This document shows, one piece after another, positions 1,928 through 20,719 of a stretch of 28,293 bases of DNA. This DNA is from a plasmid. The stretch is taken from sequence record NZ_CP120882.1; one strand, given 5' to 3'. Within the stretch, counting starts at the first letter, position 1, and each line of letters opens with the position of its first letter. The position numbers and the translations under genes were made by a program. The notes below the pieces were generated by a model. The model was not told the DNA's origin, did not search any database, and saw nothing but the letters and a program-made list of their open reading frames with translations.

Positions 1928-1940
1928 TTTTAGCCGCTAA
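1928..1940. promoter_or_regulatory. KorB operator (OB): TTTAGCCGCTAAA
   Basis: Exact match to the 13-bp IncP-1 OB consensus TTTAGC(G/C)GCTAAA, immediately after the stop of the 1618..1926 ORF. Confidence 0.7.
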
Positions 1941-1956
1941 ATCTGACGCCAAGGGA

Positions 1957-2513: not shown

Positions 2514-3455
2514 ATGACACCGCAAGCCCCCCAAATCCCCGCCGACGTGCGCGAGCGCATCATTGCCGCCGCCACTGATCTTTTCGAGCAGTCGGGCCGC
2601 GAGACGATGCCCACGGTCGATGCGGTGCGCCGGGCCGCCCGCGTGGATATGAATGCAGCCAGTGCCGTGATGAAGGAATGGCGCAGGGCGCAGACTGCCC
2701 AGGCCGCCCCGGTGGCCGTGGCGGTGCCGGAGGTTGTGCAGCAGGCCAGCAGCGCCGCCGTGGCGACGATCTGGCAGCAGGCCCAGGAGCTGGCGAACGA
2801 ATCCCTACGCAGCGCACAGGCCGCATGGGAAACCGAGCGGGCCGAGCTGGACGCGATGCGGCAGGAGCTGGCCGAGGCTTTCGAGCGCCAGGCCGGCGAG
2901 TTGGACGCGACCACGGCCGAGCTGGCCGCCGAGAAGGCCGCCACCGAAAAGCTGGCCCAGGAACTTGCCGCCGTTCGTCAAGAGCTGGGCGCAGCACAGG
3001 AACAGGCGCACACCGCCGAGGCCCGCGCCCAGGAGATCGAGCGCCGGGCCGACGAGCTGCGCACGGAACTGGACAGGGCGCACCAGGACGCCGACCAGGC
3101 ACGCGGGGCACTGGCCGAACAGCAGAAGGCCAGCCAGGCGGCCGCCGCTCAACTCGACCAGGTGCGCGCCGAGCTGGTGAAGGTGCAGGCCAAGGCCGAG
3201 GCCAACGAGGAAGCGCACCAAGAACAGCGCAAGACCGCAGCGGGCGAGGCGCACCGCATGGCCGAACGCCTCACCGCCGCCCAGGCCGAGCGCGACCAGG
3301 CCACGAAGGCGGCTGCACAGGCACGCGAAGAAGCCGCTCGCCTGGCCGGGCAGCTCGACACGCTCAAGGAGCAATCGGCCGCGCTGTTGGCCCGCATCAC
3401 ACCGCCGGCGGCCGAGGCGAAGCCCGCGACCAGGAAGAAGCCAGGCGGCGAGTGA
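2514..3455 (+). CDS. kfrA: KfrA-like alanine-rich coiled-coil DNA-binding protein
   Basis: N-terminus MTPQAPQIPADVRERIIAAATDLFEQSGRE is the HTH-like segment. A long Ala/Glu/Gln-rich heptad coiled coil follows, typical of IncP-1 KfrA. GGAG ribosome-binding site 8 nt upstream. The ORF track's upstream extension to 2349 is ignored. Confidence 0.8.
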   Translation: MTPQAPQIPADVRERIIAAATDLFEQSGRETMPTVDAVRRAARVDMNAASAVMKEWRRAQTAQAAPVAVAVPEVVQQASSAAVATIWQQAQELANESLRSAQAAWETERAELDAMRQELAEAFERQAGELDATTAELAAEKAATEKLAQELAAVRQELGAAQEQAHTAEARAQEIERRADELRTELDRAHQDADQARGALAEQQKASQAAAAQLDQVRAELVKVQAKAEANEEAHQEQRKTAAGEAHRMAERLTAAQAERDQATKAAAQAREEAARLAGQLDTLKEQSAALLARITPPAAEAKPATRKKPGGE

Positions 3456-3464
3456 CCGGCCCCC

Positions 3465-3627
3465 AGGGGGGGGCGATTTCACGAACTCAGGGGGAGGCCC
3501 GGATATTGACACTTGAGGGGCGCGGGCCTGCCTCTAGCGGCCAGGTTTGGCCGTCCTGATCTGTTGGCCGGTGGGAGGCGCAGGGGGGGGCGATTTCACG
3601 TCATGGGGTTATTGACACTTGAGGGGC
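3465..3627. repeat. Two direct repeats of about 50 bp (3465-3521 and 3581-3627), each with the motifs CAGGGGGGGGCGATTTCACG and ATTGACACTTGAGGGGC
   Basis: Found by direct sequence comparison. Repeat spacing is about 116 bp. The repeats lie between the kfrA stop and the traK stop. Confidence 0.6.
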
Positions 3628-3673
3628 CGGCCGACTGTCTCCCTTTGGCGTTCATCCACCCATCAGGGGCGGC

Positions 3674-4102
3674 TTACAGCAAGTCCTCTTTGTTCAGCGT
3701 TGGGTTGAAATTGAAGCTGGGAATCTTCCCGGCTTGCTCGCTGGCAGGGCTGGCCGGAGCTGGTACGGCCGGCTTTGGCGTGACGGCTGGAACGGTGGTC
3801 GGCGAGTCGCTGGCCGACCTGGTGGCGGCCTTCGGTGTCGGCGGCGCGGTGTCGGCCGGCGCTGCCTTGATGAACCGCTGGACGTGCCGGCGGAACGTCT
3901 CATAGCTGGTTTTCACCCGGCCGGTTTCGTGCATGTGATCGTAGATCGTCGTCAGCGCGTAACCGGCTTCCATTGCCTCGACCACATCCCCGCGCACCGC
4001 CAGAAACGCTACTGCCGCCGTGTCCTGGCGGCGCTTCTTCTCGGCCTTCTGATTGGCCCAGGCAGCAAGTTCATCGGTGTATCGGGTTCCCATCGGAATC
4101 AT
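3674..4102 (-). CDS. traK: oriT-binding relaxosome protein TraK
   Basis: 142 aa. Motifs YTDELAAWANQKAEKKRRQDTAAVAFLAVRGDV and the C-terminal FNFNPTLNKEDLL match the IncP TraK family as I recall it. The gene is divergent from traJ across oriT. The start could be the ATG at 4102 or the one at 4093. Confidence 0.75.
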   Translation of the reverse strand: MIPMGTRYTDELAAWANQKAEKKRRQDTAAVAFLAVRGDVVEAMEAGYALTTIYDHMHETGRVKTSYETFRRHVQRFIKAAPADTAPPTPKAATRSASDSPTTVPAVTPKPAVPAPASPASEQAGKIPSFNFNPTLNKEDLL

Positions 4103-4444
4103 TCCAGTTCATGAAATGTGTGCGGTCTAATGCGTGTAAAGCAGTAGGAAACTGCGTGGAAATTGGTAGTAAATCGTTGTTTGTTCGTGGATTCCATTGC
4201 ATTTTGCCCTACTGCACGCCAATACACCATTTTCCTTGCGAAAAACAATGCAATCCTACTGAACCGCTGTATAGTTTCCTTATCTAATGCAATGCTGAAT
4301 AGAGGGCAGGATGTGTGAAGTAGGCCCACCATGCAAGCATGGTGATCCTCTTCACTTCCCCTTATTCGCGCCTGCGGCGCTCAACGGGGCATCCTGCCCT
4401 GCGGGGCCAGCCGGCGGCCGCCGGCAACGACAGAGGACGCCAAG
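4103..4444. other. oriT: IncP-type origin of transfer (oriT) between traK and traJ
   Basis: 4304-4402 reads GGGCAGGATGTGTGAAGTAGGCCCACC...GGTGATCCTCTTCACTTCCCCTTATTCGCGCCTGCGGCGCTCAACGGGGCATCCTGCCC, which aligns with the RK2/RP4 oriT core (the imperfect 19-bp inverted repeat plus the ATCCTG|CCC nick motif). By analogy the nick lies on the minus strand opposite 4306/4307. A second ATCCTGCCC motif is on the plus strand at 4391-4399. The traK-proximal side (4110-4300) is AT-richer, like the TraK-binding region in RP4. Confidence 0.7.
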
Positions 4445-4822
4445 ATGGAGGCCAACGAGAACAAGGTAACGAGGAAGGGCAGTACGCCCATCAAGGTCTA
4501 TTGCCTGCCGGACGAACGGGCCGCCATCGAGGCCAACGCCCAAGCCGCCGGCATGAGCACGTCCGCCTACCTGCTGGCGGTCGGCCAGGGCTACCAGGTC
4601 AAAGGCGTGACCGACTTCGAGAACGTGCGCGACCTGGTGCGCGTGAATGGCGACCTCGGCCGGCTGGGTGGCCTGCTCAAGCTCTGGCTGACCGACGACC
4701 CGCGCACGGCTCGCTTCGGCGATGACACCATCCGGGCGCTGCTGGCCCGGATCGAGGCAACCCAGGACAAGATCAGCACCATCGCGGAAAGCGTGGTGCG
4801 GCCGCGAGGCGGGCAATCGTGA
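4445..4822 (+). CDS. traJ: Relaxosome accessory protein TraJ (binds the oriT inverted repeat)
   Basis: 125 aa. The segment KGSTPIKVYCLPDERAAIEANAQAAGMSTSAYLLAVGQGYQVKGV...GDLGRLGGLLKLWLTDDPRTARFGD is collinear with RP4 TraJ. Confidence 0.85.
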   Translation: MEANENKVTRKGSTPIKVYCLPDERAAIEANAQAAGMSTSAYLLAVGQGYQVKGVTDFENVRDLVRVNGDLGRLGGLLKLWLTDDPRTARFGDDTIRALLARIEATQDKISTIAESVVRPRGGQS

Positions 4823-6648
4823 TCGCCAAGCACGTGCCCATGCGCTCGCTGGGCAAGTCCGACTTCGCCGGCCTGGTGCGGTACGTCACCGACGCGCAGA
4901 GCAAAGACCACCGGCTGGGCCAGGTGCAGGTCACGAACTGCGCCGCCGACACCGTGCGCGATGCCATCACCGAGGTGCTGGCGACCCAGCAGGCCAACAC
5001 GCGGGCTAAGGGTGACAAGACCTATCACCTGATCGTCAGCTTTCGCGCCGGCGAGCAGCCGAGCGCCGATACCCTGCGGCAGATCGAGGCCCGCATCTGC
5101 GACGGGCTGGGCCTGGGCGAGCATCAGCGCGTCAGCGCCGTGCATAACGACACCGACAACCTGCACATCCACATCGCCATCAACAAGATTCACCCGACCA
5201 GGGGCACGATGCAGGAGCCGTACTACTCGCATCGGGCGCTGGCTGACCTCTGCGCGACCCTGGAACGCGACTACGGCCTGGAGCGGGACAACCACGAACC
5301 ACGCCAGCGCGGCGCGGCCGCCAGGGCCGGCGACCTGGAACAGCACGCCGGCGTGGAAAGCCTGGTCGGCTGGATCAAGCGCGAGTGCCTGGACGAGATC
5401 AAGGGCGCGGCGAGCTGGGCCGAGCTGCACCAGGTCATGCGCGATAACGGCCTGGCGCTGCGCGCACGCGGTAACGGCCTAGTCATCGAGGCCGGCGACG
5501 GCACGATCATCAAGGCCAGCACCTTGGCCCGCGACCTGTCCAAGCCCGCCCTGGAAAAGCGGCTTGGCACGTTCGAGGCGTCGCCCGAGCGCCAGGCCGC
5601 GCCGGCACAGCGCAACTACCAGAAGGGCCGGCCGATGCGTCTGCGCGGCGGCCTGGACACGACCGAGCTTTACGCCCGGTACAAGGGCGCACAGCAGACC
5701 CTCACGGCCGCCAGGGCCGGCGTGCTGGCCGAGGCGAAGCGCCGGAAGGATCGGGCCATCGAGCACGCCAAGAAGGCGGCGGCCACCCGGCGGGCGGCCA
5801 TCAAGCACCTGACCGATGGCCGGCTGACCAAGAAGCTGCTGTATGCCCAGGCCAGCGCCGCGCTGCGGGCCGACCTGGATGCGATCCACAAGCGCCACGA
5901 CCAGGAGCGGGCGGCGATCTACAACGAGCACCGCCGGCGGCCGTGGGCCGACTGGCTCAAGCAGCAGGCAACGGCCGGCGACGGCCAGGCGCTCGATGCG
6001 CTACGCGCCCGCGAGGCGGCCCAGGGCCTCAAGGGCGACACCATCCAGGGCGACGGCCAGGCGAAGCCCGGCCATGCCCCGGTGATCGACAGCATCACGA
6101 AGAAGGGCACGATCATCTACCGCGCCGGCAGCTCGGCCGTGCGCGATGACGGCGAGCGCCTGGCCGTGTCCAGCCAGGCCGACCGCGCCGGCGTGGCGGC
6201 GGCGCTGCGCCTGGCAATGGAACGCTACGGCGAGCGCATCACTGTCAGCGGCAGCGTGGAGTTCAAGGCCGCCGTGATCCGGGCGGCCGTCGATGCCCAG
6301 CTCCCCATCACCTTCGCCGATCCGGCACTGGAAAGCCGGCGGCAGGCCGAGGCCACCAAGGCCCAGGCCAAGCGCCGGCCAGGTGTGCCCCCTGTCGGCC
6401 AGGAGCCGCCGCCACATCGCCGGCACGGCCTGCGCACGTTGGGCCAGCTCGACGGGCTGCACATCGAGGGCGAAGCCCAGCGGCCGGCACAAGCGCCGAC
6501 CCAGGCCACCCCGACACCGCCGCCGGCCAAAGTGCAGCAGCCGGCCAGGCCCGCGCTGTCCGAGCTGGAACAGCGCGAGGCGCGGCTACGGGCGCAGATG
6601 GAAGCCAAGAAGGCGAAACGCCAGGAGGGCAAGAAGCGCGGGCGATGA
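4819..6648 (+). CDS. traI: IncP-type relaxase TraI, MOB-P family. At 609 aa it is shorter than the roughly 730-aa RP4/R751 TraI.
   Basis: GTG start overlaps the traJ stop as GTGA. N-terminus MIAKHVPMRS. The catalytic tyrosine region is LVRYVTD. The histidine triad HNDTDNLHIHIAINKI and the conserved GTIIYRAGSSAVRDDGERL block are present. The C-terminus ends in a Lys/Arg-rich tail right before an EcoRI site and the junction with trb. Confidence 0.85.
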   Translation: MIAKHVPMRSLGKSDFAGLVRYVTDAQSKDHRLGQVQVTNCAADTVRDAITEVLATQQANTRAKGDKTYHLIVSFRAGEQPSADTLRQIEARICDGLGLGEHQRVSAVHNDTDNLHIHIAINKIHPTRGTMQEPYYSHRALADLCATLERDYGLERDNHEPRQRGAAARAGDLEQHAGVESLVGWIKRECLDEIKGAASWAELHQVMRDNGLALRARGNGLVIEAGDGTIIKASTLARDLSKPALEKRLGTFEASPERQAAPAQRNYQKGRPMRLRGGLDTTELYARYKGAQQTLTAARAGVLAEAKRRKDRAIEHAKKAAATRRAAIKHLTDGRLTKKLLYAQASAALRADLDAIHKRHDQERAAIYNEHRRRPWADWLKQQATAGDGQALDALRAREAAQGLKGDTIQGDGQAKPGHAPVIDSITKKGTIIYRAGSSAVRDDGERLAVSSQADRAGVAAALRLAMERYGERITVSGSVEFKAAVIRAAVDAQLPITFADPALESRRQAEATKAQAKRRPGVPPVGQEPPPHRRHGLRTLGQLDGLHIEGEAQRPAQAPTQATPTPPPAKVQQPARPALSELEQREARLRAQMEAKKAKRQEGKKRGR

Positions 6649-6670
6649 CGCTTGCGAATTCTCGGATGTT

Positions 6671-6720
6671 CGATTAGCATCCGAGTTAGAAGCTAGAAGC
6701 TATATAGCAGCTAGTTAGCT
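6671..6720. repeat. Hairpin (ctcggatg...catccgag) followed by a cluster of TAGAAGCTAGAAGCTATATAGCAGCTAG repeats, related to the repeats flanking the parA/parG locus
   Basis: TAGCAGCTAG at 6704-6713 is identical to the motifs at 26738-26747 and 27707-27716. AGAAGCTAGA is the reverse complement of the TCTAGCTTCT repeats at 26688-26723. Confidence 0.5.
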
Positions 6721-6886
6721 TACACCGATGTTCAACAAAAATGGCCGGGCGCAACGGTGTCGCTCAGGTCGGGTACCGGGACAACGATTCGGCGTGTTGT
6801 CTCTGTGATGGCCCAACGCCGCCAGTTTGCCGAAAAGGCAGCAGGCCGGCGCAGCGCAGCCGCTCATCACATCGAGGTACTCGACC

Positions 6887-7672
6887 ATGAAACACGTCCG
6901 CCTTTTAGCGGCTAAAACCGCGCTCGCCGCTGCCCTGGCCGGCAGCATCATCATCACCCCGGCGCAGGCCGGCATTCCCGTCATCGACGGCGGGAACCTG
7001 GTGCAGAACGTCATGACGGCCATCGAGTCAGTGGCGCAGACGCTCAAGCAGATCGAGCAGTACCAGACCCAATTGCAGCAGTACGAGAACATGCTGCAAA
7101 ACACGATGGCCCCAGCGGCCTACATCTGGGATCAGGCGCAGTCCACCATCAACGGGCTGATGAATGCCGTCAACACGCTGGACTACTACAGGAACCAGCT
7201 CGGCAGTCTCGACGCCTACCTGGGCAAGTTCCAGGACGTGAGCTACTACCGCAGCTCGCCGTGCTTCTCGGCCGCCGGGTGCTCGGATGCCGAGCGCGCC
7301 GCGATGGAGCAAAACCGCCGCCTGGCGAGCGAGAGCCAGAAGAAGGCGAACGACGCGCTGTTCAAGGGTCTGGAGCAGCAGCAGCGCAACCTGACCGCCG
7401 ACGCTCGCCAGCTCGAACGGCTCCAGTCCGCTGCGCAGGGAGCGACCGGGCAGATGCAGGCCATCGGCTTCGCCAATCAGCTCGCTGCCAACCAAGCAAA
7501 CCAGCTTCTGCAAATCCGTGGCCTGCTGATCGCGCAGCAGAACGCCGCGACCGCCAGGATGCAGGCGCAGGCCGACCTTGAGGCGCAGCAGCAGGCCGCC
7601 GGCGCGACTTCCAGGGAATCCAGGATCGAGCGCACGGCAAGCCCGAGAAACTGGCTCGAACTGACCCGCTGA
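6887..7672 (+). CDS. trbJ: VirB5-like mating-pair-formation protein TrbJ
   Basis: Signal peptide MKHVRLLAAKTALAAALAGSIIITPAQAG. The block GIPVIDGGNLVQNVMTAIESVAQTLKQIEQYQTQLQQYENMLQNT is collinear with IncP-1 TrbJ. The ORF track's TTG start at 6827 is rejected in favour of the ATG at 6887, which has a GAGGT ribosome-binding site. Confidence 0.8.
   Translation: MKHVRLLAAKTALAAALAGSIIITPAQAGIPVIDGGNLVQNVMTAIESVAQTLKQIEQYQTQLQQYENMLQNTMAPAAYIWDQAQSTINGLMNAVNTLDYYRNQLGSLDAYLGKFQDVSYYRSSPCFSAAGCSDAERAAMEQNRRLASESQKKANDALFKGLEQQQRNLTADARQLERLQSAAQGATGQMQAIGFANQLAANQANQLLQIRGLLIAQQNAATARMQAQADLEAQQQAAGATSRESRIERTASPRNWLELTR
6904..6916. promoter_or_regulatory. KorB operator (OB): TTTAGCGGCTAAA, inside the first codons of trbJ
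   Basis: Exact OB consensus. It encodes RLLAAKT of the TrbJ signal peptide. Confidence 0.7.
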
Positions 7673-7687
7673 CGGAGGCCCTGCACC

Positions 7688-7954
7688 ATGAAGAAAACGA
7701 TGCTGCTTGCCGGCCTCGTGGTGGTGCTGGTGGCTGGCTGCGACAACAAGCCGGCCATCCCGCCCATGCCCGAGGTCAATGACACCAATTGCCAGATCGA
7801 GGCGATCAAGAAGATCGAGGACAGGGCCACGCGCGAGAAATTCGCCGGGCTGTGCTCGCGTCGGTCGCCGGCCGCCGGCGGCATCGCGCCGACCGAGAAG
7901 CCCATGAACTGGCTCGAACTGGCCGACCCGAAAGACCAGGAGGCGAAGCCATGA
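7688..7954 (+). CDS. trbK: Entry-exclusion lipoprotein TrbK
   Basis: 88 aa. Lipoprotein signal MKKTMLLAGLVVVLVAGC with lipobox LVAGC. Its position between trbJ and trbL matches IncP-1. Confidence 0.65.
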   Translation: MKKTMLLAGLVVVLVAGCDNKPAIPPMPEVNDTNCQIEAIKKIEDRATREKFAGLCSRRSPAAGGIAPTEKPMNWLELADPKDQEAKP

Positions 7955-9612
7955 AAGCACTGCACAAGGCGGCGCTGATCGGCGTCACCCTCGCGCTTTA
8001 CTCCACCGCCGCATCGGCCCAGCTCACCAACCAAGGGATGCTTGACCAGGTGGTGACGGAGTTCGCCACGCGGGCCACGTCCTGGCAGACGGTGGTGATG
8101 AATGCCGCGATGTTCCTGTTCTGGACGCTGGGCACGATCTCGCTGGTTTTCACGTTCGGCTTCATGGCGCTGCGCAAGGCCGACATTGGCGAGTTCTTCG
8201 CCGAGTTCATCCGCTTCATCCTGTTCTTTGGCTTCTTCCTCTGGCTGCTGCGCAACGGCCCGGCCTTCGCCAACTCGATCATCCAGTCATTGGCCCGGAT
8301 CGGTGAGCAGGCGTCCGGGGTGGCATCGGTGACACCCTCGGGCATCGTGGATATCGGCTTCATGATCTTGAAGCAGGCATTCAGCAACTCGTCGATCTGG
8401 TCGCCCGTGGATAGCTTCATCGGCGTGGCCTTGAGCCTCGGCATCCTGATCTTGCTGGCTGTCGTTGCCATAAACATGCTGTTGCTGCTCGTCTCGGGCT
8501 GGCTGCTGATGTACGCCGGCATCTTCTTCCTCGGCTTCGGCGGAAGCCGTTGGACGTCCGACATGGCGATCAACTACTACAAGACCGTGTTGGGCGTGGC
8601 CGTGCAGATCATGACGATGGTGCTCCTGGTCGGCATCGGGAACGACCTGCTTTCCAGCTTCTACGCCAGGATGAACACCGGCACGCTGAACTTTGAAGAG
8701 CTGGGCGTGATGCTGGTTTTCTGCGTGGCGTTGCTCATGCTGGTCAATCGCGTGCCGCCGCTTGTCGCCGGCATCATCACCGGCTCGGGTATCGGTGGCG
8801 CTGGTGGCATCGGCAACTTCGGTGCAGGTGCTGCCATCGGTGCGGCTATGGGCGCGGCGAGCATGGCCGCCGGTGCGGCAAGCGTGGCCGGCGCGGCCGT
8901 GATGGGTGGTGCAGCCTCGGCCGCCGGCGGCATGTCGGCCATCAAAGCAGCGTTCGAGAAAGCGGGATCGAGCGCCGGCGGCGAGTCGGGCGGAATGCCC
9001 ATGCTCGGCGGTGGCTCCGACTCCGGCAGCGATGCAGGCTCGTTTGCGCAAGCTGCTGGCTTTGGTGGCGGGTCAAGCTCAGGAGCGGGCACCACTACAC
9101 CACTTGCACAGGCCGCCGGTTTCGGCAGCAGCTCGGGCAGCGGTGCCAGCGGCTCGGGTGGAAGCAATGGGCAACAGCCCGGTAAATCGGGTGGAGGTTC
9201 CAGCTCGAAGGGTGGCGACGAAGCCGGCAGCAAGAAAGCCCAGCAAGGCGGCCAGCAGGCAGCACCAGGCAGCACCGGCCCCGGCTTGCTGGCCTCGGCC
9301 GCATCGGCGCTTGGCACGGCGGGCCGCGTGACGGCCGACGCCGGCGCGAACCTGATGCAAGGCGTCGGCGAGGTTGCGAAGGCCAAGGCCGCCAGCATGC
9401 GCGACGCCGCCGCCGAACGCATCGCTGACACCACCGGCGGGAAGATCGCGGCGGCTATCAGGGCGAGTGCGGAGAGTGACCAGGCCGCCGCTGTCGAGGC
9501 GGTGCCGACATTCGGCGGCAACAACCTGGCAGGGGCCGATTCGGCTGCTGCCGATCCTGATGACGAAGTGGCCGCGTTCGCCAACCGCGAGCACGGTAAA
9601 TCGGAGGCGTGA
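7951..9612 (+). CDS. trbL: VirB6-like inner-membrane mating-pair-formation protein TrbL
   Basis: ATG at 7951 overlaps the trbK stop, with an AGGAGG ribosome-binding site. Signal peptide MKALHKAALIGVTLALYSTAASA. Multiple transmembrane segments and a Gly/Ser/Ala-rich C-terminal tail, as in IncP TrbL. Confidence 0.8.
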   Translation: MKALHKAALIGVTLALYSTAASAQLTNQGMLDQVVTEFATRATSWQTVVMNAAMFLFWTLGTISLVFTFGFMALRKADIGEFFAEFIRFILFFGFFLWLLRNGPAFANSIIQSLARIGEQASGVASVTPSGIVDIGFMILKQAFSNSSIWSPVDSFIGVALSLGILILLAVVAINMLLLLVSGWLLMYAGIFFLGFGGSRWTSDMAINYYKTVLGVAVQIMTMVLLVGIGNDLLSSFYARMNTGTLNFEELGVMLVFCVALLMLVNRVPPLVAGIITGSGIGGAGGIGNFGAGAAIGAAMGAASMAAGAASVAGAAVMGGAASAAGGMSAIKAAFEKAGSSAGGESGGMPMLGGGSDSGSDAGSFAQAAGFGGGSSSGAGTTTPLAQAAGFGSSSGSGASGSGGSNGQQPGKSGGGSSSKGGDEAGSKKAQQGGQQAAPGSTGPGLLASAASALGTAGRVTADAGANLMQGVGEVAKAKAASMRDAAAERIADTTGGKIAAAIRASAESDQAAAVEAVPTFGGNNLAGADSAAADPDDEVAAFANREHGKSEA

Positions 9613-9614
9613 CC

Positions 9615-9872
9615 ATGAAACGTAGTGGCTTTTTCGACTGCCTGGCGCTCGACCAGGTGCAGCGGCCGGCGGTGGAGTTTGAGCAGCCTGGCGACCAATC
9701 AACCGAGCTTGATGCGGCGGCGGAAGTGGCGGCCTTCGTTGATCGCCCTGCCCCGTCTGCCATCGAGGCCACCAGGCCGGCGGCCAGGTCATCGAGCAAC
9801 AGCTACAGCGGCAGCAACAGGAACACGCCGCTGGCAGAGGCCGCCGGCATCTACAGCAGCGGCCAGCGGTAA
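9615..9872 (+). CDS. Hypothetical 85-aa ORF downstream of trbL. It could be a degenerate remnant of the next trb gene.
   Basis: ATG 3 bp after the trbL stop. No signal peptide. Ser/Ala-rich low-complexity C-terminus. Confidence 0.3.
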   Translation: MKRSGFFDCLALDQVQRPAVEFEQPGDQSTELDAAAEVAAFVDRPAPSAIEATRPAARSSSNSYSGSNRNTPLAEAAGIYSSGQR

Positions 9873-9935
9873 AGCGCGCCGGCCGGCGTGGGGCCGGCCG
9901 ACACTTCCACAACCCACCTACCACAGAGGTGAATC

Positions 9936-10169
9936 ATGGCAACTTTGAATCCTACCAATGCAATCGCAACCCAGGCAGTTCATCATGCGGCCGCGCAGCT
10001 CGCGGCCCTGGACTGGATCGACCAAGAGGCGGCGCGGCAGCTCTCGCCGATGGCGGAAGCCGTCGCCAATATGTTCATGGTGCTGTACTACCAGGCCGAG
10101 ACGGGCCAGGCCACGCGGGACGACTTCCGCCAGGCCCTGGACGCGGTGCGGCAGTCACTTACCGCGTAG
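9936..10169 (+). CDS. Hypothetical small protein (77 aa)
   Basis: AGAGGTG ribosome-binding site 6 nt upstream. Followed directly by a strong terminator. Confidence 0.45.
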   Translation: MATLNPTNAIATQAVHHAAAQLAALDWIDQEAARQLSPMAEAVANMFMVLYYQAETGQATRDDFRQALDAVRQSLTA

Positions 10170-10179
10170 GCTCAACCAG

Positions 10180-10216
10180 AAACAACAAGGGCGGCCATTG
10201 GCCGCCCTTGTTGTTT
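10180..10216. terminator. Bidirectional rho-independent terminator with a perfect 17-bp stem (aaacaacaagggcggcc / ggccgcccttgttgttt) and a 3-nt loop
   Basis: Seen directly. It lies between the plus-strand trb-side operon and the converging minus-strand vapD. Confidence 0.7.
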
Positions 10217-10226
10217 CAATGCCCAC

Positions 10227-10511
10227 TTATAGCGCAGGTGCAAGGTCGTTCATTTCTTCGATACGGAGCATCCTAATGTCACGCACAGAGGCTTTGAACC
10301 ATGTGTAAGTCGTACTGAGTTGCTGTGCGGCCAAGACACACTGAACTGCATTGATGCGTTCATCGCCGAAGTAGACGCTTCCCTGTTGCCAAGAGAACCC
10401 GAGAGGTTCTAGCGTTTTGCGAATGTCCCCGTAAGCGTTGTTCCAGGACGGATTGGGGTAAGACTGTTTGAGTGTTTCTGTATCAAGATCGAAAGCAATG
10501 GCGTAGGTCAT
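10227..10511 (-). CDS. vapD: VapD-family (Cas2-like) endoribonuclease
   Basis: 94 aa. MTYAIAFDLDTETLKQ...LGFSWQQGSVYFGD...KASVRDIRMLRIEEMNDL matches the VapD family pattern. The local region is about 50% GC against about 65% for the backbone. Confidence 0.8.
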   Translation of the reverse strand: MTYAIAFDLDTETLKQSYPNPSWNNAYGDIRKTLEPLGFSWQQGSVYFGDERINAVQCVLAAQQLSTTYTWFKASVRDIRMLRIEEMNDLAPAL

Positions 10512-11145: not shown

Positions 11146-11982
11146 CTAGTATGACGTCTGTCGCACCTGCTTGATCGCGGCCGCGATAGCTAGATCGCGT
11201 TGCTCCTCTTCTCCATCCGCGTTCCAAGCTGCGGAAAGGCACCCATAAGCGTACGCCTGGTCGAGCAGGCGACGCGGATCGACGTCCAGCGCACGAGAGA
11301 ATGCGTCCGCCATCTGTGCAATGCGTCTAGGATCGAGACAAAGGTCGTCTCTGTCAGCCGGATCGTAGAACATATTGGCGGCGCCAAAGCCCACTTCACC
11401 GACCAGACCGACGGGATCTATCACCAGCCAGCCGCGACTGGAGAACATGATGTTTTCATGATGCAGATCGCCATGTAGCCCACGCAGTTCCGAGGCATTG
11501 CTCATCATTTGATCGGCTATAATCGCCGCGTGGACGTAGTCAGTTTGACAACCTGCGTTTTGATCATCGCGCGCCCGCTGAAACAAAGCTGCAAAGCGAT
11601 CCCGGATCGGGAGAAGGGCAGAAGGCAGGGGTTCCTCAGATGCGGCATACAGCTTCGCCATTAGTTCCGCTGCAATTTCGGTCGCCTGGTAGTCGCCGTG
11701 CTCGGCAACGATGTGAGAGAGCATTCGCTCCCCGGCATATTCGAGCAACATCAGATTGTTCTCACGACCGAGCAACCGGACTGCTCCCCTCCCATTGCGC
11801 CATACCAGATAGTCGGCCCCGCGCAGTTCATCAGCAATGTCTTCTATAGGTTTCAATCCCTTGACGATTGCAGGAGTCCCGTCTGGCAATGAAACTTTCC
11901 AAACGAGGCTGGAAAAGGTGTCCGCAATGAGAACAGGTTGCGAAACGTGCCAATGAGCAGGAAAAACAGGCGGCATGAACAT
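11146..11982 (-). CDS. strB: Aminoglycoside 6-phosphotransferase APH(6)-Id (streptomycin resistance)
   Basis: The protein starting MFMPPVFPAHWHVSQPVLIADTFSSLVWKV... is the StrB sequence as I recall it. It overlaps the strA stop as TGATG. Confidence 0.9.
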   Translation of the reverse strand: MFMPPVFPAHWHVSQPVLIADTFSSLVWKVSLPDGTPAIVKGLKPIEDIADELRGADYLVWRNGRGAVRLLGRENNLMLLEYAGERMLSHIVAEHGDYQATEIAAELMAKLYAASEEPLPSALLPIRDRFAALFQRARDDQNAGCQTDYVHAAIIADQMMSNASELRGLHGDLHHENIMFSSRGWLVIDPVGLVGEVGFGAANMFYDPADRDDLCLDPRRIAQMADAFSRALDVDPRRLLDQAYAYGCLSAAWNADGEEEQRDLAIAAAIKQVRQTSY

Positions 11983-12785
11983 CAACCCCAAGTCAGAGGG
12001 TCCAATCGCAGATAGAAGGCAAGGCGTTCGCGGTCGGGGGCTTCGATCCCCAATACATTGAATAGGACAGCGAAGGCGCGCTCTGCTTCATCTGGCGCTG
12101 CCCAGTTCTCTTCGGCGTTAGCAATCATGAGTGCCAAATCGGCATAGCGATCTGCTGTTCCGAGCCGCCCAAGGTCGATCAGACCCGTGCATTGAAGAGT
12201 TTTAGGGTCCACCATGAAGTTCGGCATGCAGGGATCACCATGGCAAACAACCATATCGGTGCGCTCTTGGTCGAGCCGCACCGGTAGCTCTCGTTCGACA
12301 CGAGCCAAAAGATCGAGCTGCGGCGTACTCTTGTCCTCGTCCGGTAAGAAGTCGGGATTGACGGCATTGCGGGACACCACATCAACGGCGCGTCCGAACA
12401 TTCGCGACAGCCTGCGCTCAAACGGACATTGATCAACCGATAGGCTGTGAACAGCGCCAAGTTGCTGCCCCATTGACGGCCACGCTTTGAGCAAATCCGC
12501 TCCAGACAGATCAGCCGCCGGTACTCCCGGAATTGCCGTTATCACCAAGCATGCACCCTCCTGTTCCTCCTGCCAGTTGATGACCTCGGGGCAAGCCACA
12601 CCTCGACCTTTGAGCCAAATGAGGCGGTCACGCTCTCCAGCGAGCTCACCGCGGCGGGAAGCAGGTGCGATTTTCGCGAAGGCATGCCCGTCACCACGTC
12701 GAAAAACAAAATCACCAGATTCTCCGCCTCTGACAGGCAACCAGTCAGAATGCGATTCACCAAAAAAAATATTAGTTCGATTCAA
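11982..12785 (-). CDS. strA: Aminoglycoside 3''-phosphotransferase APH(3'')-Ib (streptomycin resistance)
   Basis: 267 aa. MNRTNIFFGESHSDWLPVRGGESGDFVFRRGDGHAFAKIAP... is the StrA sequence as I recall it. Confidence 0.9.
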   Translation of the reverse strand: MNRTNIFFGESHSDWLPVRGGESGDFVFRRGDGHAFAKIAPASRRGELAGERDRLIWLKGRGVACPEVINWQEEQEGACLVITAIPGVPAADLSGADLLKAWPSMGQQLGAVHSLSVDQCPFERRLSRMFGRAVDVVSRNAVNPDFLPDEDKSTPQLDLLARVERELPVRLDQERTDMVVCHGDPCMPNFMVDPKTLQCTGLIDLGRLGTADRYADLALMIANAEENWAAPDEAERAFAVLFNVLGIEAPDRERLAFYLRLDPLTWG

Positions 12786-12796
12786 TGGAGGTTCCT

Positions 12797-13465
12797 TCAG
12801 TTTTCTGATGAAGCGCGGAGGTGGCTCAACTTGCGAAAAGAAACGAGTTGCGACGTAAGTCCGAGAACATGCTTTCCATGGTCTCTGAGCTCGCCTTTGG
12901 GACCGACATATCGGTAGAGAGTGACGCGCTCGATGCCGAGTTCCTTGCAGAGATCGGAAACTGAAGTATCGCGCTGGGCCATGGCGGCTTGCGCGAGACG
13001 CACCTGAGCTTTGGTGAGCGCGAATTTTCGTCCGCCCTTGCGACCGCGCGCTCTCGCGGAGGCGAGACCCGCCATGGTGCGCTCTCGGATCAGATCCCGC
13101 TCGAACTCGGCCAAGGTGGCGAAGATTCCGAACACCATGCGACCGGACGCAGTCGTGGTGTCGATCTGAGCGCCCTTTCCAGTCAGAACCCGCAGGCCGA
13201 TCTTGCGGTCTGACAGCTCCTTCACCGTGTTGACCAGATGGGCAAGCGATCGTCCGAGGCGATCGAGCTTCCAGACCACCAGCACATCGCCGTCACGCAA
13301 TGACTTGAGGCAGGCAGTCAAGCCAGGGCGATCATCACGACCGCCGGAAGCAAGATCATCATAGATATTGTCCCGTTCGACACCTGCGGCGCGCAAGGTG
13401 TCGTGCTGCAGGTCGAGAGACTGCGAGCCATCGGCTTTGGAGACGCGGGCATATCCGATCAGCAT
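12797..13465 (-). CDS. tnpR: Tn5393 serine resolvase TnpR
   Basis: MLIGYARVSKADGSQSLDLQ is the catalytic-serine motif. HTH at the C-terminus. Divergent from tnpA across the res region 13466-13590. Confidence 0.85.
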   Translation of the reverse strand: MLIGYARVSKADGSQSLDLQHDTLRAAGVERDNIYDDLASGGRDDRPGLTACLKSLRDGDVLVVWKLDRLGRSLAHLVNTVKELSDRKIGLRVLTGKGAQIDTTTASGRMVFGIFATLAEFERDLIRERTMAGLASARARGRKGGRKFALTKAQVRLAQAAMAQRDTSVSDLCKELGIERVTLYRYVGPKGELRDHGKHVLGLTSQLVSFRKLSHLRASSEN

Positions 13466-13590
13466 GTATCACAAACGTTGGTTTGAGGCGGCGCTTCGGC
13501 CACGATTGCATTGACCTCTGGAAATGTATCTCAACCAGCTTCATAAACAAAGCGTCTTGAACGCTATCAGATTTTGAAAAAGGAACATGT

Positions 13591-16476
13591 ATGCCGCGTC
13601 GCGTCACTCTAACCGATCGGCAGAAAGACGCGCTGTTGCGCTTGCCGACTTCACAGACGGATTTGCTCAAGCACTATACGCTGAGTGATGAAGACCTTGG
13701 GCATATCAGGCTGCGTCGGCGCGCTCACAACAGGTTCGGCTTCGCCCTGCAATTGTGTGTCCTGCGCTATCCCGGCCGGGTGCTGGCTCCAGGCGAACTG
13801 ATCCCTGCAGAGGTCATCGAATTTATCGGAGCGCAGCTTGGCCTGGGTGCCGACGATCTCGTAGACTATGCTGCCCGCGAGGAAACACGGCACGAGCATC
13901 TTGCCGAGTTACGGGGGCTCTACGGCTTCCGCACCTTCTCCGGACGTGGTGCGAGCGAGCTGAAGGAATGGTTGTTCCGAGAAGCCGAGATGGCGGTGTC
14001 GAACGAGGATATCGCCCGTCGCTTCGTAGCCGAGTGCCGACGCACCCGCACTGTCCTTCCCGCGACATCCACGATCGAGCGGCTTTGTGCCGCGGCTCTC
14101 GTCGATGCCGAGCGACGCATCGAGACGAGGATCGCCATTCGTCTGCCTATGTCGATCCGAGAACAGTTGCTGGCATTGCTCGAGGAGACGGCTGATGATC
14201 GGGTGACCCGTTTTGTGTGGCTGCGCCAGTTCGAGCCTGGCTCGAACTCTTCGTCGGCCAACCGGCTGCTCGACCGGCTCGAATATCTGCAACGCGTCGA
14301 TCTCCCCGAGGATCTGCTTGCCGGCGTTCCTGCCCATCGGGTGACTCGTCTGCGCAGGCAGGGTGAACGGTATTATGCCGACGGCATGCGCGATCTCCCG
14401 GAGGACAGGCGGCTTGCGATCTTGGCTGTTTGCGTCTCGGAATGGCAGGCGATGTTGGCCGACGCAGTGGTCGAAACCCACGACCGGATCGTCGGCCGTC
14501 TCTACCGTGCTTCGGAGCGTATTTGCCATGCAAAGGTCGCAGACGAAGCGGGGGTGGTGCGTGACACCCTGAAATCCTTCGCCGAGATCGGGGGCGCCCT
14601 GGTCGATGCACAGGATGATGGCCAGCCGCTGGGCGACGTCATCGCGAGCGGATCAGGGTGGGACGGCTTCAAAACCCTTGTTGCAATGGCAACCAGGCTC
14701 ACCGCCACCATGGCCGACGATCCGCTCAACCATGTGCTCGACGGTTATCACCGCTTCCGCCGATACGCTCCACGCATGTTGCGCCTGCTCGATCTGCGAG
14801 CTGCGCCCGTTGCACTGCCGCTTCTGGAAGCGGTGACGGCCCTTCGTACCGGTTTGAACGATGCCGCGATGACCAGCTTCTTGCGGCCCAGCTCGAAATG
14901 GCATCGCCACCTTCGGGCCCAGAGGGCTGGCGACGCTCGCCTATGGGAGATCGCGGTGCTGTTCCATCTGCGCGATGCGTTCCGCTCCGGAGATGTCTGG
15001 CTTACTAGGTCCCGGCGCTATGGCGATCTGAAACACGCACTCGTTCCGGCACAAGCCATCGCGGAAGGCGGTCGTCTCGCTGTGCCATTGCGGCCGGAGG
15101 AATGGCTGGCAGACCGGCAAGCTCGCCTCGACATGCGGTTGCGCGAGCTTGGCCGTGCCGCTCGCGCAGGCACGATCCCGGGCGGGTCGATTGAAAACGG
15201 CGTTCTGCATATCGAGAAACTCGAAGCCGCCGCGCCGACAGGCGCCGAAGATCTGGTGCTCGATCTCTACAAGCAGATCCCGCCCACGCGCATCACCGAT
15301 CTCCTGCTGGAGGTGGATGCGGCGACCGGCTTCACCGAAGCGTTCACCCATCTGCGCACAGGAGCACCCTGCGCTGACCGGATCGGGCTAATGAACGTTA
15401 TCTTGGCGGAAGGGATCAACCTCGGCTTGCGCAAAATGGCGGATGCGACAAACACCCACACCTTCTGGGAATTGATCCGCATTGGACGGTGGCATGTCGA
15501 GGGCGAAGCCTATGACCGGGCGCTGGCCATGGTGGTCGAGGCACAGGCAGCGTTACCCATGGCCCGGTTCTGGGGCATGGGCACGTCGGCTTCGAGCGAC
15601 GGACAGTTCTTCGTCGCTACAGAGCAAGGTGAGGCCATGAACCTGGTCAACGCGAAATATGGCAATACCCCGGGCCTGAAAGCCTATAGCCACGTCTCCG
15701 ACCAATATGCGCCGTTCGCAACCCAGGTGATTCCTGCAACGGCAAGCGAAGCGCCTTACATCCTCGATGGCCTGCTGATGAACGATGCTGGACGCCATAT
15801 CCGCGAGCAGTTCACCGACACGGGCGGCTTCACCGATCACGTCTTTGCCGCATGTGCCATTCTCGGCTACCGGTTCGCTCCGCGCATCCGCGACCTGCCA
15901 TCCAAACGGCTCTACGCGTTCAATCCGTCGGCCGCCCCGGCGCACCTGCGAGCGTTGATCGGCGGAAAGGTCAACCAAGCCATGATCGAGCGCAATTGGC
16001 CCGACACCCTGCGCATCGCCGCCACCATTGCTGCCGGGACCGTCGCGCCAAGCCAGATTCTGCGGAAACTCGCCTCCTATCCGCGGCAGAACGAGCTCGC
16101 GACAGCCCTGCGGGAAGTCGGTCGCGTCGAGCGCACCCTGTTCATGATCGACTGGATTCTGGATGCCGAACTCCAACGGCGTGCCCAGATCGGGCTCAAC
16201 AAAGGCGAAGCTCATCATGCGCTGAAGCGGGCAATCAGCTTCCACCGCCGCGGTGAAATCCGCGACCGTTCCGCCGAAGGCCAGCATTACCGCATCGCCG
16301 GCATGAATCTGCTCGCCGCCATCATCATCTTCTGGAACACCATGAAGCTCGGCGAGGTCGTTGCAAACCAGAAACGCGATGGAAAGCTGCTATCGCCCGA
16401 TCTCTTGGCCCATGTTTCGCCGCTCGGATGGGAACACATCAATCTCACCGGAGAATATCGCTGGCCAAAGCCTTAG
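13591..16476 (+). CDS. tnpA: Tn3-family DDE transposase TnpA
   Basis: 961 aa. Ends inside the left inverted repeat, as is typical of the Tn3 family. AAGGAA ribosome-binding site. Confidence 0.9.
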   Translation: MPRRVTLTDRQKDALLRLPTSQTDLLKHYTLSDEDLGHIRLRRRAHNRFGFALQLCVLRYPGRVLAPGELIPAEVIEFIGAQLGLGADDLVDYAAREETRHEHLAELRGLYGFRTFSGRGASELKEWLFREAEMAVSNEDIARRFVAECRRTRTVLPATSTIERLCAAALVDAERRIETRIAIRLPMSIREQLLALLEETADDRVTRFVWLRQFEPGSNSSSANRLLDRLEYLQRVDLPEDLLAGVPAHRVTRLRRQGERYYADGMRDLPEDRRLAILAVCVSEWQAMLADAVVETHDRIVGRLYRASERICHAKVADEAGVVRDTLKSFAEIGGALVDAQDDGQPLGDVIASGSGWDGFKTLVAMATRLTATMADDPLNHVLDGYHRFRRYAPRMLRLLDLRAAPVALPLLEAVTALRTGLNDAAMTSFLRPSSKWHRHLRAQRAGDARLWEIAVLFHLRDAFRSGDVWLTRSRRYGDLKHALVPAQAIAEGGRLAVPLRPEEWLADRQARLDMRLRELGRAARAGTIPGGSIENGVLHIEKLEAAAPTGAEDLVLDLYKQIPPTRITDLLLEVDAATGFTEAFTHLRTGAPCADRIGLMNVILAEGINLGLRKMADATNTHTFWELIRIGRWHVEGEAYDRALAMVVEAQAALPMARFWGMGTSASSDGQFFVATEQGEAMNLVNAKYGNTPGLKAYSHVSDQYAPFATQVIPATASEAPYILDGLLMNDAGRHIREQFTDTGGFTDHVFAACAILGYRFAPRIRDLPSKRLYAFNPSAAPAHLRALIGGKVNQAMIERNWPDTLRIAATIAAGTVAPSQILRKLASYPRQNELATALREVGRVERTLFMIDWILDAELQRRAQIGLNKGEAHHALKRAISFHRRGEIRDRSAEGQHYRIAGMNLLAAIIIFWNTMKLGEVVANQKRDGKLLSPDLLAHVSPLGWEHINLTGEYRWPKP

Positions 16477-18047: not shown

Positions 18048-19061
18048 CTACCTCTCACTAGTGAGGGGCGGCAGCGCATCAAGCGGTGAGCGCACTCCGG
18101 CACCGCCAACTTTCAGCACATGCGTGTAAATCATCGTCGTAGAGACGTCGGAATGGCCGAGCAGATCCTGCACGGTTCGAATGTCGTAACCGCTGCGGAG
18201 CAAGGCCGTCGCGAACGAGTGGCGGAGGGTGTGCGGTGTGGCGGGCTTCGTGATGCCTGCTTGTTCTACGGCACGTTTGAAGGCGCGCTGAAAGGTCTGG
18301 TCATACATGTGATGGCGACGCACGACACCGCTCCGTGGATCGGTCGAATGCGTGTGCTGCGCAAAAACCCAGAACCACGGCCAGGAATGCCCGGCGCGCG
18401 GATACTTCCGCTCAAGGGCGTCGGGAAGCGCAACGCCGCTGCGGCCCTCGGCCTGGTCCTTCAGCCACCATGCCCGTGCACGCGACAGCTGCTCGCGCAG
18501 GCTGGGTGCCAAGCTCTCGGGTAACATCAAGGCCCGATCCTTGGAGCCCTTGCCCTCCCGCACGATGATCGTGCCGTGATCGAAATCCAGATCCTTGACC
18601 CGCAGTTGCAAACCCTCACTGATCCGCATGCCCGTTCCATACAGAAGCTGGGCGAACAAACGATGCTCGCCTTCCAGAAAACCGAGGATGCGAACCACTT
18701 CATCCGGGGTCAGCACCACCGGCAAGCGCCGCGACGGCCGAGGTCTTCCGATCTCCTGAAGCCAGGGCAGATCCGTGCACAGCACCTTGCCGTAGAAGAA
18801 CAGCAAGGCCGCCAATGCCTGACGATGCGTGGAGACCGAAACCTTGCGCTCGTTCGCCAGCCAGGACAGAAATGCCTCGACTTCGCTGCTGCCCAAGGTT
18901 GCCGGGTGACGCACACCGTGGAAACGGATGAAGGCACGAACCCAGTGGACATAAGCCTGTTCGGTTCGTAAACTGTAATGCAAGTAGCGTATGCGCTCAC
19001 GCAACTGGTCCAGAACCTTGACCGAACGCAGCGGTGGTAACGGCGCAGTGGCGGTTTTCAT
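18048..19061 (-). CDS. intI1: Class 1 integron integrase
   Basis: 337 aa. [49 protein letters not shown]... is IntI1 as I recall it. Confidence 0.95.
18946..18974 (+). promoter_or_regulatory. Cassette promoter Pc, the hybrid variant TGGACA-N17-TAAACT. The second promoter P2 is inactive because it has a 14-nt spacer and lacks the GGG insertion.
   Basis: TGGACA at 18946-18951, 17-nt spacer, TAAACT at 18969-18974, all inside the intI1 coding region. TTGTTA...TACAGT downstream has a 14-nt spacer. Confidence 0.7.
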
Positions 19062-19138
19062 GGCTTGTTATGACTGTTTTTTTGTACAGTCTATGCCTCG
19101 GGCATCCAAGCAGCAAGCGCGTTACGCCGTGGGTCGAT

Positions 19139-19203
19139 GTTTGATGTTATGGAGCAGCAACGATGTTACGCAGCAGGGCAGTCGCCCTAAAACAAAGTTA
19201 GGC
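19139..19203. other. attI1: attI1 recombination site ending at the GTTAGGC core
   Basis: The sequence gttatggagcagcaacgatgttacgcagcagggcagtcgccctaaaacaaagttaggc is the canonical attI1. Confidence 0.8.
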
Positions 19204-19221
19204 ATCACAAAGTACAGCATC

Positions 19222-19776: not shown

Positions 19777-19856
19777 CCCTTCCATCGAGGGGGACGTCCA
19801 AGGGCTGGCGCCCTTGGCCGCCCCTCATGTCAAACGTTAGCCACCAAGAAGGTGCC

Positions 19857-20657: not shown

Positions 20658-20719
20658 CAATTCGCTGCAGGCGCGACGGCCCTGACGGGCCGCGGCCTGA
20701 GCTCAAACGTTAGACCGCT

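Follow-up and report, generated by a model that had tools for sequence, protein, structure and literature searches.

The window, that is, the whole stretch of 28,293 nucleotides of plasmid DNA that was analyzed here (sequence record NZ_CP120882.1), contains at positions 3,674 to 9,612 a transfer region of the IncP-1 type that consists of two groups of genes. The first group comprises traK, the origin of transfer (oriT), traJ and traI, the last of which encodes a relaxase of 609 amino acids. The second group, which is separated from traI by a junction and a noncoding leader, comprises trbJ, trbK and trbL, of which trbJ and trbL code for predicted components of a type IV secretion system (T4SS), and is followed by a small open reading frame (ORF), orf85, and a PtaRNA1 toxin-antitoxin pair (Table 1). 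All of these tra and trb genes were found to be present and intact at the positions given to them by a first-pass annotation of this DNA. The data argue that the region is a conserved mobilization backbone, in which two old modules are joined at a conserved leader.

Table 1. Features of the window, with the evidence on which their assignment is based.
Feature	Position	Strand	Evidence or remark
traK, oriT-binding relaxosome accessory gene, leader-operon side	3674-4093	-	Pfam DUF5338/TraK, E 1e-23; 42% identical to full-length pB3 TraK; RefSeq annotation of an identical sister plasmid
oriT, IncP type	4290-4410	+	Inverted repeat (TraJ site), then nick region CATCCTG/CCC at 4390-4399
traJ, oriT-recognizing relaxosome protein	4445-4822	+	NCBIfam NF010451, 191 bits (cutoff 134); 60% identical to pB3 TraJ
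traI, MOBP11-type relaxase, 609 amino acids, short family-specific C-terminal tail	4819-6648	+	TraI_MobP NF041893, 566 bits (cutoff 250)
Variable proximal part of the junction	6649-6721	+	Sequence; conserved only in the closest relatives
Noncoding trbJ leader, candidate structured 5' untranslated region, about 165 nucleotides	6722-6886	+	Invariant blocks across 52 distinct sequences
trbJ, VirB5-family T4SS component	6887-7672	+	NF010452, 424 bits (cutoff 286); 77% identical to pB3 TrbJ
trbK, entry-exclusion lipoprotein, IncP-1beta-like allele type	7688-7954	+	TIGR04359, 79.6 bits (cutoff 23)
trbL, VirB6-family inner-membrane T4SS component, Gly/Ser/Ala-rich C-terminal half	7951-9612	+	TIGR02783, 252 bits (cutoff 129)
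orf85, conserved small ORF of 85 amino acids after trbL	9615-9872	+	In family plasmids and GIsul2, 37-98% identical
PtaRNA1 type I toxin-antitoxin, antisense RNA	9872-9942	-	Rfam RF01811, 84.7 bits (gathering score 47)
PtaRNA1 type I toxin-antitoxin, toxin	9936-10169	+	Pfam ptaRNA1_toxin, E 1.6e-39
KorB-operator-type palindrome TTTAGCCGCTAAA, upstream of the kfrA-like gene	1929-1941		Perfect match; position likewise occupied in p2990 and pMAD49b
KorB-operator-type palindrome, trbJ codons 6-10	6904-6916		Perfect match
KorB-operator-type palindrome TTTAGCGGCTAAA, 78 nucleotides upstream of parA	26672-26684		Perfect match
Tn5393-like strA-strB unit	11146-16476
Class 1 integron: aac(6')-Ib-family, OXA-10-family, aph(3')-XV, catB, sul1	18048-23625
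Rfam "AAC_AAD_leader / attI" match	19151-19221

The NCBIfam cutoffs were exceeded by all named genes except traK, the assignment of which rests on its Pfam match. A MOBP11 relaxase, TraJ, TraK and an IncP-type oriT, which together characterize the IncP-1 relaxosome, are all encoded in the window. The Rfam model traJ-II, which describes the IncP oriT region, matched positions 4304-4408 with 109.5 bits, as compared to a gathering score of 40, and in an alignment with the IncP-1beta plasmid pB3 and the plasmids pMAD49b and p2990 the inverted repeat and the nick region form a nearly invariant block. By homology to the RP4 sequence ATCCTG/C, the nick presumably occurs after G4396.

The relaxase TraI contains the Pfam domains Relaxase, TraI_middle and LPD7, is 72% identical to residues 4-525 of pB3 TraI in a tblastn search, and is collinear with this protein of 746 amino acids to about residue 516. 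Beyond this point it lacks a 61-residue Gly/Arg/Ala-rich segment, the IncP-1 counterpart of which encodes traH in another frame, as well as another segment, of 16 residues, and some 60 residues at the C terminus of pB3 TraI. The PPVGxxPPP...LRxLxQL motif is retained, as is the RGR at the end. The same short tail was found in pMAD49b and p2990, members of the family with TraI proteins that are 71-76% identical to that of the window, and dN/dS values (ratios of nonsynonymous to synonymous substitution rates) of 0.12-0.23 for traI indicate purifying selection. The first-pass annotation had supposed that TraI was truncated at a point that an alignment would reveal; since internal segments are also absent and the tail is conserved in the family, the protein is not simply cut off, and the alignments argue that the short TraI is a stable family trait.

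To establish which parts of an IncP-1 backbone are present, 37 backbone proteins of pB3 were compared to the whole window by tblastn. Real matches were obtained only for KfrA, TraK, TraJ, TraI, TrbJ, TrbK (62% over 42 amino acids) and TrbL. No match in the window was found for TraL, TraM, TraH, TraG, TraF, TraE and TraC, for TrbA to TrbI and TrbM to TrbP, or for KorA, KorB and TrfA, and the IncC protein gave only a weak match of 43 amino acids to the plasmid's own ParA. The absence of traL, traM, traH to traC and trbB to trbI had been proposed before and is borne out by this search of the whole replicon, which revealed no intact trbB to trbI, traG or traF elsewhere. The window thus has neither the TrfA/oriV replicon with KorA, KorB and IncC nor the set of TrbB to TrbL, TraF and TraG that characterize self-transmissible IncP-1 plasmids, and its own rep gene (1-1383) matched no Pfam or NCBIfam model. 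A stretch of 57 amino acids that is 61% identical to IncP-1 TraD was noted at 26416-26580, in the ORF 25753-26676. The product of this ORF is resolvase-like (Resolvase and HTH_7 domains), the TraD-like stretch lies in its C-terminal extension, and the reading frame extends to the KorB-type palindrome that is located upstream of parA.

In the second group of genes, a longer ORF with a TTG codon at 6827 was considered for trbJ and discarded as not representing the real start. TrbK has the features of TIGR04359-type proteins, namely, a lipoprotein signal peptide with a lipobox cysteine (MKKTMLLAGLVVVLVAG/C; lipobox LVAG/C19) and a gene location between trbJ and trbL. The Pfam TrbL domain covers residues 62-267 of TrbL, and the protein is 56% identical to pB3 TrbL over residues 16-276 of the latter. 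The gene table of the PLSDB database lists no trbL for pMAD49b, which raised the possibility of a degraded gene; this was ruled out by the presence of an intact ORF of about 365 amino acids with a VirB6 domain (7654-8733). No Pfam or NCBIfam model matched orf85. The orf85 and PtaRNA1 pair was always located 3' of trbL, GIsul2 included, and therefore the transfer cassette ends in an addiction module. The genes trbJ, trbL and orf85 are under purifying selection, with dN/dS values of 0.02-0.24, 0.12-0.44 and 0.12-0.37, respectively, at synonymous divergences that reach more than 1.

The two groups of genes meet at the junction between traI and trbJ, and a 521-bp probe covering the end of traI and the start of trbJ retrieved 30 plasmids from PLSDB that belong to 8 genera, 25 of which are typed as mobilizable, at identities down to 73%; p4130-KPC is among them. 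The same junction is present in 67 genomic or metagenomic loci, and both the leader and the traI-to-trbJ junction were found in several islands of chromosomal location that have int, alpA and repA genes of the GIsul2 type (L092, L076 and L109). The first-pass annotation had correctly described the proximal features of this junction in the window. The basic TraI terminus, ...KKAKRQEGKKRGR, ends at 6648 and is followed 8 nucleotides past the stop codon by the EcoRI site GAATTC (6656-6661), which is the sole copy in the window as compared to about 3.75 expected from composition, by a hairpin, CTCGGATG-N9-CATCCGAG, at 6661-6685, and by TAGAAGCTAG-type repeats at 6686-6719, which form an imperfect palindrome of 22 bp at 6693-6714. 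This palindrome may be an operator; no other copy was found in the window within 3 mismatches when a regulon was searched for. The annotation had further taken the EcoRI site as marking the junction of a collapsed transfer region. This part did not hold, since the junction is found in all the plasmids and loci mentioned and the EcoRI site is not conserved: it is lost in a Xanthomonas cucurbitae plasmid, pMRCP1333 and pMAD49b. Likewise, only close relatives share the hairpin and the 22-bp palindrome. The three elements were thus ruled out as a conserved joint. Judged by its distribution, the junction is old and widespread, and neither a recent collapse nor a cloning scar.

In many relatives a gene for a FitA-like ribbon-helix-helix protein was observed between traI and the leader (for example, at 6768-6950 of locus L006 and 8690-8878 of locus L013, and in about 26 leader loci), and a different palindrome, TCGTGCAGGGTTGCACGA, borders the leader on its 5' side in relatives with or without this gene. 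The window has no FitA-like ribbon-helix-helix gene, and the hairpin and the 22-bp palindrome are found in its place, which suggests that alternative repressor/operator pairs serve one cassette.

Unlike the proximal part of the junction, which is variable, the leader that directly precedes trbJ is conserved. Leader loci were collected by pattern scans followed by filtering with an nhmmer profile, which yielded 21 species-representative genome loci and 46 metagenome contigs, that is, the 67 loci referred to above. The first pattern applied to the genome collection was too loose, and about 80 of its 101 matches were chance matches in high-GC Actinobacteria that the profile removed. Of the 52 loci with sufficient room upstream, 48 have the end of traI at most 900 nucleotides upstream of the leader, and of the 59 with sufficient room downstream, 55 have trbJ immediately after it. 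No homologue of a core component of mating pair formation (MPF) or of the type IV coupling protein turned up in any of these 67 loci.

The leader is noncoding, because its insertions and deletions are not multiples of three, and the region 6600-6960 had no Rfam match up to an E value of 10 on either strand. A fold with several helices was predicted, in which 97.8% of the alignment cells are paired. Two of its six helices, helices 3 and 6, show compensatory changes; both are hairpins, and one of them has a tip of variable length. The remaining helices are invariant and therefore uninformative on the structure. The closing helix, formed by GGUCGGGUACC and GGUACUCGACC just before the AUG, varies only from G-C to G-U, with the pairing maintained on the sense strand only, and is predicted to be able to pair with the ribosome-binding region and start codon of trbJ. 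As compared to shuffled sequences, the z-score of the fold was -2.77 for the sense strand and -1.15 for the antisense strand. The leader is hence a candidate translational control element, for which the predicted fold provides moderate evidence. The covariation evidence remained moderate because the 46 copies from metagenomes added little new diversity. In the GIsul2 element and a PIME, both from Escherichia coli, the leader could not be aligned, which restricts it to a sub-lineage of such elements.

A second potential control element lies within trbJ itself. The consensus of the IncP-1 KorB operator is established to be TTTAGCSGCTAAA (Kostelidou and Thomas 2000). Two loci of pB3 contain 11 perfect copies of this consensus, and several of these copies lie in control regions between genes. 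The window, which encodes no KorB, contains three perfect sites, compared to an expectation of 0.25 even if 2 mismatches are allowed. In pB3, in GIsul2 and in the family plasmids that were retrieved, the site in trbJ lies 14-17 nucleotides past the start of the gene, and a perfect palindrome was found in 27 of 28 further loci checked, most of which also carry the leader. Although the DNA is GC-rich, the palindrome keeps TTA, a rare codon for leucine, and this suggests that selection acts on the DNA sequence as such. The simplest idea, that the KorB protein of a helper binds the palindromes of the window, is speculation.

A further observation concerns the alleles of trbK and trbL. TrbK of the window is 98% identical to its counterpart in pMRCP1333 and 55% identical to that of the IncP-1beta plasmid pB3, and shares only 27-36% identity with the TrbK proteins of the X. 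cucurbitae plasmid, pMAD49b, p2990 and GIsul2. In a sliding comparison to the X. cucurbitae plasmid (locus L007), identity was 95-98% through traJ, traI and the leader, fell to 43-48% over the 3' end of trbJ and trbK, was 58-71% in the membrane domain of trbL and between 54% and 93% in its low-complexity C-terminal half, and was again 90-96% from orf85 onward. The replaced block corresponds approximately to window positions 7400-9500 and comprises the 3' end of trbJ, trbK and trbL. Across the 67 loci, TrbK of the window type always occurs with a TrbL of at least 72% identity and other TrbK types with a TrbL of 39-52% identity, regardless of the identity of TraI, which ranges from 58% to 99%. 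There are at least two to three allele types of TrbK, each of which has its own type of TrbL. Based on this association and on the sliding comparison, trbK and trbL have therefore been replaced together. This co-replacement fits a common specificity function, and close linkage alone would give the same pattern.

Taken together, these data are best explained by a conserved mobilization backbone of a plasmid that has been published, in which two old modules are joined at a conserved leader and which works with a P-type helper, a reading to which a probability of roughly 0.7 can be assigned. The first module, the IncP-1-type relaxosome of traK, oriT, traJ and traI, would nick its own oriT, and the nicked DNA would then be passed on to a conjugative element of the P type (IncP-1-like) in the same cell. 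Such a handover would be required because the replicon lacks the genes for the coupling protein and the pore. The second module is the cassette of leader, trbJ, trbK, trbL, orf85 and PtaRNA1 that is also present in GIsul2, in the IncP islands and in the PIMEs. Located in the inner membrane of the carrier cell, TrbK may lower entry via P-type T4SSs. By analogy to SGI1, TrbJ (VirB5) and TrbL (VirB6) could be built into the T4SS of a helper when one is present, which may bias the machine to the hitch-hiker or alter the specificity of exclusion. Expression of the cassette could be controlled by the leader, which would occlude the start region of trbJ, and by the KorB-operator palindrome in trbJ.

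The inference that the plasmid is mobilizable and not self-transmissible had also been drawn in the first-pass annotation, and it agrees with the literature. Self-transfer failed for the IncpSE5381-aadB group (PMC11135338), to which the plasmid most likely belongs (see below), and for the related pPE52IMP (PMC9501424). PIME1, which has its own traJ and traI and an IncP-like oriT, was shown to be mobilized by pB10 and pKJK5, which are IncP-1 plasmids, and to require its own relaxase for this (bioRxiv 10.64898/2026.01.12.698999). As to the second module, it was proposed by Guedon et al. in 2017 that TrbJ, TrbK and TrbL of GIsul2 and the IncP islands reshape the pore of the helper and bypass exclusion, in analogy to SGI1 (PMC5704250).

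Several points weigh against the backbone and helper interpretation. No report of helper mobilization was found for this plasmid family, the published attempts being limited to self-transfer. The PIME study used TrbJ and TrbL as markers only (bioRxiv 10.64898/2026.01.12.698999), and the literature contains no experimental assignment of a function of TrbJ or TrbL on elements that lack the remaining T4SS. The pairing of trbK and trbL may reflect mere physical linkage, because IncP TrbK has no known partner on the donor side (PMC8923210). In p4130-KPC, trbJ is interrupted (PMC9501424), and TrbL of pMAD49b lacks the low-complexity Gly/Ser-rich C-terminal half. The evidence for the leader structure is moderate, with most helices invariant and compensatory changes in two of six. 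Finally, a scan of positions 3400-10300 for sigma-70 promoters returned nothing, including before trbJ and at oriT, and is uninformative on the trbJ promoter; IncP-1 plasmids are known to have promoters at oriT.

Among the alternatives, the most viable, which is the reading of the first-pass annotation, is that the cassette serves only for the TrbK-mediated exclusion of IncP-1 plasmids, with trbJ and trbL providing the expression context of trbK. The protein belongs to the TrbK family, has an intact lipobox and shares the mentioned 55% identity with IncP-1beta TrbK. The first-pass annotation had considered trbJ and trbK to be an entry-exclusion pair; this view is outdated, since TrbK alone suffices for exclusion in RP4, as cited in two publications (PMC5704250, PMC8923210). 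RP4 TrbK excludes R751 at an identity of only 41% (PMC8923210, citing Haase 1996). Furthermore, the TrbK-type protein of pKPC_UVA01, encoded between trbJ and trbL, was found to be an exclusion factor and to cross-exclude IncP and IncN plasmids, and cross-exclusion by TrbK proteins occurs at 28-41% identity (PMC8923210). By comparison to these proteins, it is plausible that TrbK of the window excludes IncP-1-type transfer. However, a purely defensive role explains neither the purifying selection on TrbJ and on the membrane domain of TrbL nor the joint replacement of the trbK and trbL alleles, and the exclusion of the sole class of helpers would hinder the plasmid's own spread unless exclusion were regulated. 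This explanation is therefore considered unlikely.

A poorer account is that trbJ, trbK and trbL are nonfunctional leftovers beside a working relaxosome. It would be in line with the absence of all of the usual partner components of the pore, with the failure of self-transfer and with the interrupted trbJ (PMC9501424) or shortened TrbL of individual members. However, the ORFs are intact and evolve at dN/dS values of 0.02-0.44 at synonymous divergences of up to more than 1, the block of five genes has been kept in Beta- and Gammaproteobacteria, in plasmids as well as in integrative mobilizable elements (IMEs), the leader upstream is strongly conserved, and the replacement of whole cassette alleles is seen rather than decay, so that a relic appears very improbable. 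The weakest explanation, a fresh or engineered IncP-1 deletion derivative with the EcoRI site, hairpin and repeats as its joint, can draw on a gene order that mirrors IncP-1 minus blocks (kfrA-traK, oriT, traJ-traI, trbJKL) and on the position of GAATTC 8 nucleotides past the traI stop, but is already refuted by the distribution of the junction in 30 plasmids and 67 loci, to about 73% nucleotide identity and including chromosomal islands, by the absence of the EcoRI site from three relatives and its low count in the window, and by the divergence data, with proteins only 42-77% identical to those of IncP-1beta, no TrfA and a TraI tail that is conserved in the family. The first-pass annotation as a whole was therefore sound in its gene content and in the missing IncP-1 machinery, and it failed in the assumed collapse and left the purifying selection on trbJ and trbL unexplained.

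The conserved mobilization backbone described here allows a more far-reaching and tentative proposal, which we consider possible but doubtful. In this proposal trbJKL would form a regulated and exchangeable helper-interface cassette, in which the leader closes the start of trbJ, the KorB protein of the helper acts on the sites in trbJ and upstream of kfrA and parA, and TrbL is the donor-side determinant of TrbK specificity, for which reason trbK and trbL would be exchanged as a matching pair. If this were true, mobilizable plasmids and IMEs could re-key the pore of their helper and their own exclusion group. The question of why nonautonomous elements keep homologues of VirB5, an entry-exclusion protein and VirB6 is common to about 1,000 PIMEs and GIsul2, and the leader, the KorB site and the co-replacement of trbK and trbL offer experimental handles on the interface between hitch-hikers and IncP-1 helpers and on the donor-side target of TrbK.

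The window represents a complete small plasmid. Positions 3000-10500 are 100% identical to the Pseudomonas aeruginosa plasmids pSE5381-aadB, pNY11384-aadB and pSE5418-aacA3, and the first approximately 22 kb of the window match two of these three sister plasmids at 100%. These plasmids are of the IncpSE5381-aadB type, a new group of four plasmids described by He et al. 2024, in which pNY7583-catB3 has a size of 28,293 bp (PMC11135338). Given this size and the catB cassette in the integron of the window, the window is most likely pNY7583-catB3, a member of the IncpSE5381-aadB group and kin of pMATVIM-7 and pPE52IMP. At 94-96% identity, the backbone was found in pMATVIM-7, pPE52IMP, pSMC1, p138R and others, in the genera Pseudomonas, Achromobacter, Serratia, Enterobacter, Acidovorax and Xanthomonas. 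An assignment to a "pMOS94-like" family was dropped, because that lineage (PMC6614342) is another one, of the MOBF11 type. In comparisons to relatives that are otherwise 96-99% identical, identity drops to 43-80% in patches at 2400-2900, 3400-3600, 4000-4200 and 6500-6800, which correspond to the 5' half of kfrA, the kfrA-traK spacer, the 5' end of traK together with the left part of oriT, and the 3' end of traI. The backbone appears to have recombined frequently.

The plasmid, its family, its gene set and its absent genes have all been published previously. The architecture without traG, traH and trbB to trbI and its interpretation as mobilizable were published in 2022 (PMC9501424), and the module of a relaxosome plus TrbJKL on nonautonomous elements is likewise already known, having been reviewed in the literature and tested experimentally for one relative. 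A limited literature search retrieved no prior description of the trbJ leader, of the conservation of the KorB site in trbJ of elements that lack korB, or of the co-replacement of trbK and trbL. These details are added here and should be considered leads rather than results. They concern a family of small broad-host-range plasmids with integrons for carbapenemases and aminoglycoside resistance, known from Pseudomonas, Achromobacter, Serratia, Enterobacter and Xanthomonas, and a dependence of its spread on P-type helpers matters for predicting the movement of resistance genes.

Clear similarities emerge between the window and several known systems. In the IncP-1 plasmids RP4/RK2, R751, pB3 and pB10, the nick region of oriT and the layout of its inverted repeat are alike, the local gene order is the same for kfrA...traK-oriT-traJ-traI and for trbJ-trbK-trbL, and a KorB operator is likewise located inside the 5' end of trbJ. 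The proteins of the window are 60% (TraJ), 72% (TraI), 42% (TraK), 77% (TrbJ), 55-62% (TrbK) and 56% (TrbL) identical to those of pB3. In contrast to these plasmids, the window lacks the TrfA replicon, KorA, KorB and IncC, TraG, TraF, the primase, TraH, TraL and TraM, TrbA to TrbI and TrbM to TrbP, and an intergenic region of 238 bp with the conserved leader precedes trbJ, where IncP-1 plasmids have trbI. As in RP4 and pKPC_UVA01, TrbK is encoded by a small lipoprotein gene between trbJ and trbL; in the window, however, this gene resides on an element without a T4SS of its own.

The closest parallels outside the plasmid family are GIsul2, the IncP islands and the PIMEs. The module that characterizes them, with trbJ-trbK-trbL as the sole MPF genes and then a small ORF and a PtaRNA1 toxin, is present in the window, and GIsul2 has the same block of five genes. 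In addition, traK, traJ, traI and an IncP-like oriT are present in the IncP islands and the PIMEs (PMC5704250; bioRxiv 10.64898/2026.01.12.698999), so that the window shares with the IncP islands and PIME1, but not with GIsul2, its own MOBP relaxase, TraJ and IncP-like oriT. Most of these elements have another TrbK allele type. They integrate, for example at guaA, and have int, alpA and IncQ-type repA/repC genes, whereas the window is an autonomous plasmid with rep and parA/parC; the int/alpA/repA/repC set is not among its replication and partition genes, and the corresponding GIsul2 proteins were not searched directly against the window. A more distant parallel is offered by SGI1, which replaces TraG, TraH and TraN of its IncC plasmid helpers and shares the concept of a few pore subunits on an element without a complete T4SS. 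However, SGI1 corresponds to the MPF_F type and the window to MPF_T, the proteins are unrelated, and SGI1 is without a relaxase of its own type.

With respect to its own family, nothing essential differs. The backbone of the window, in the order rep, orf, kfrA-like gene, traK, oriT, traJ, traI, trbJ, trbK, trbL, orf and PtaRNA1, then parA, orf and parC, is arranged in the same order in pMATVIM-7, pPE52IMP, pSMC1, p138R and the IncpSE5381-aadB plasmids, at 94-100% identity over positions 3000-10500. As compared to the pMATVIM-7 family, there are short mosaic patches at the 5' ends of kfrA and traK and at the junction, and the load of accessory integrons and transposons varies. The common rep gene and the syntenic backbone place the window in the pMATVIM-7/IncpSE5381-aadB family.

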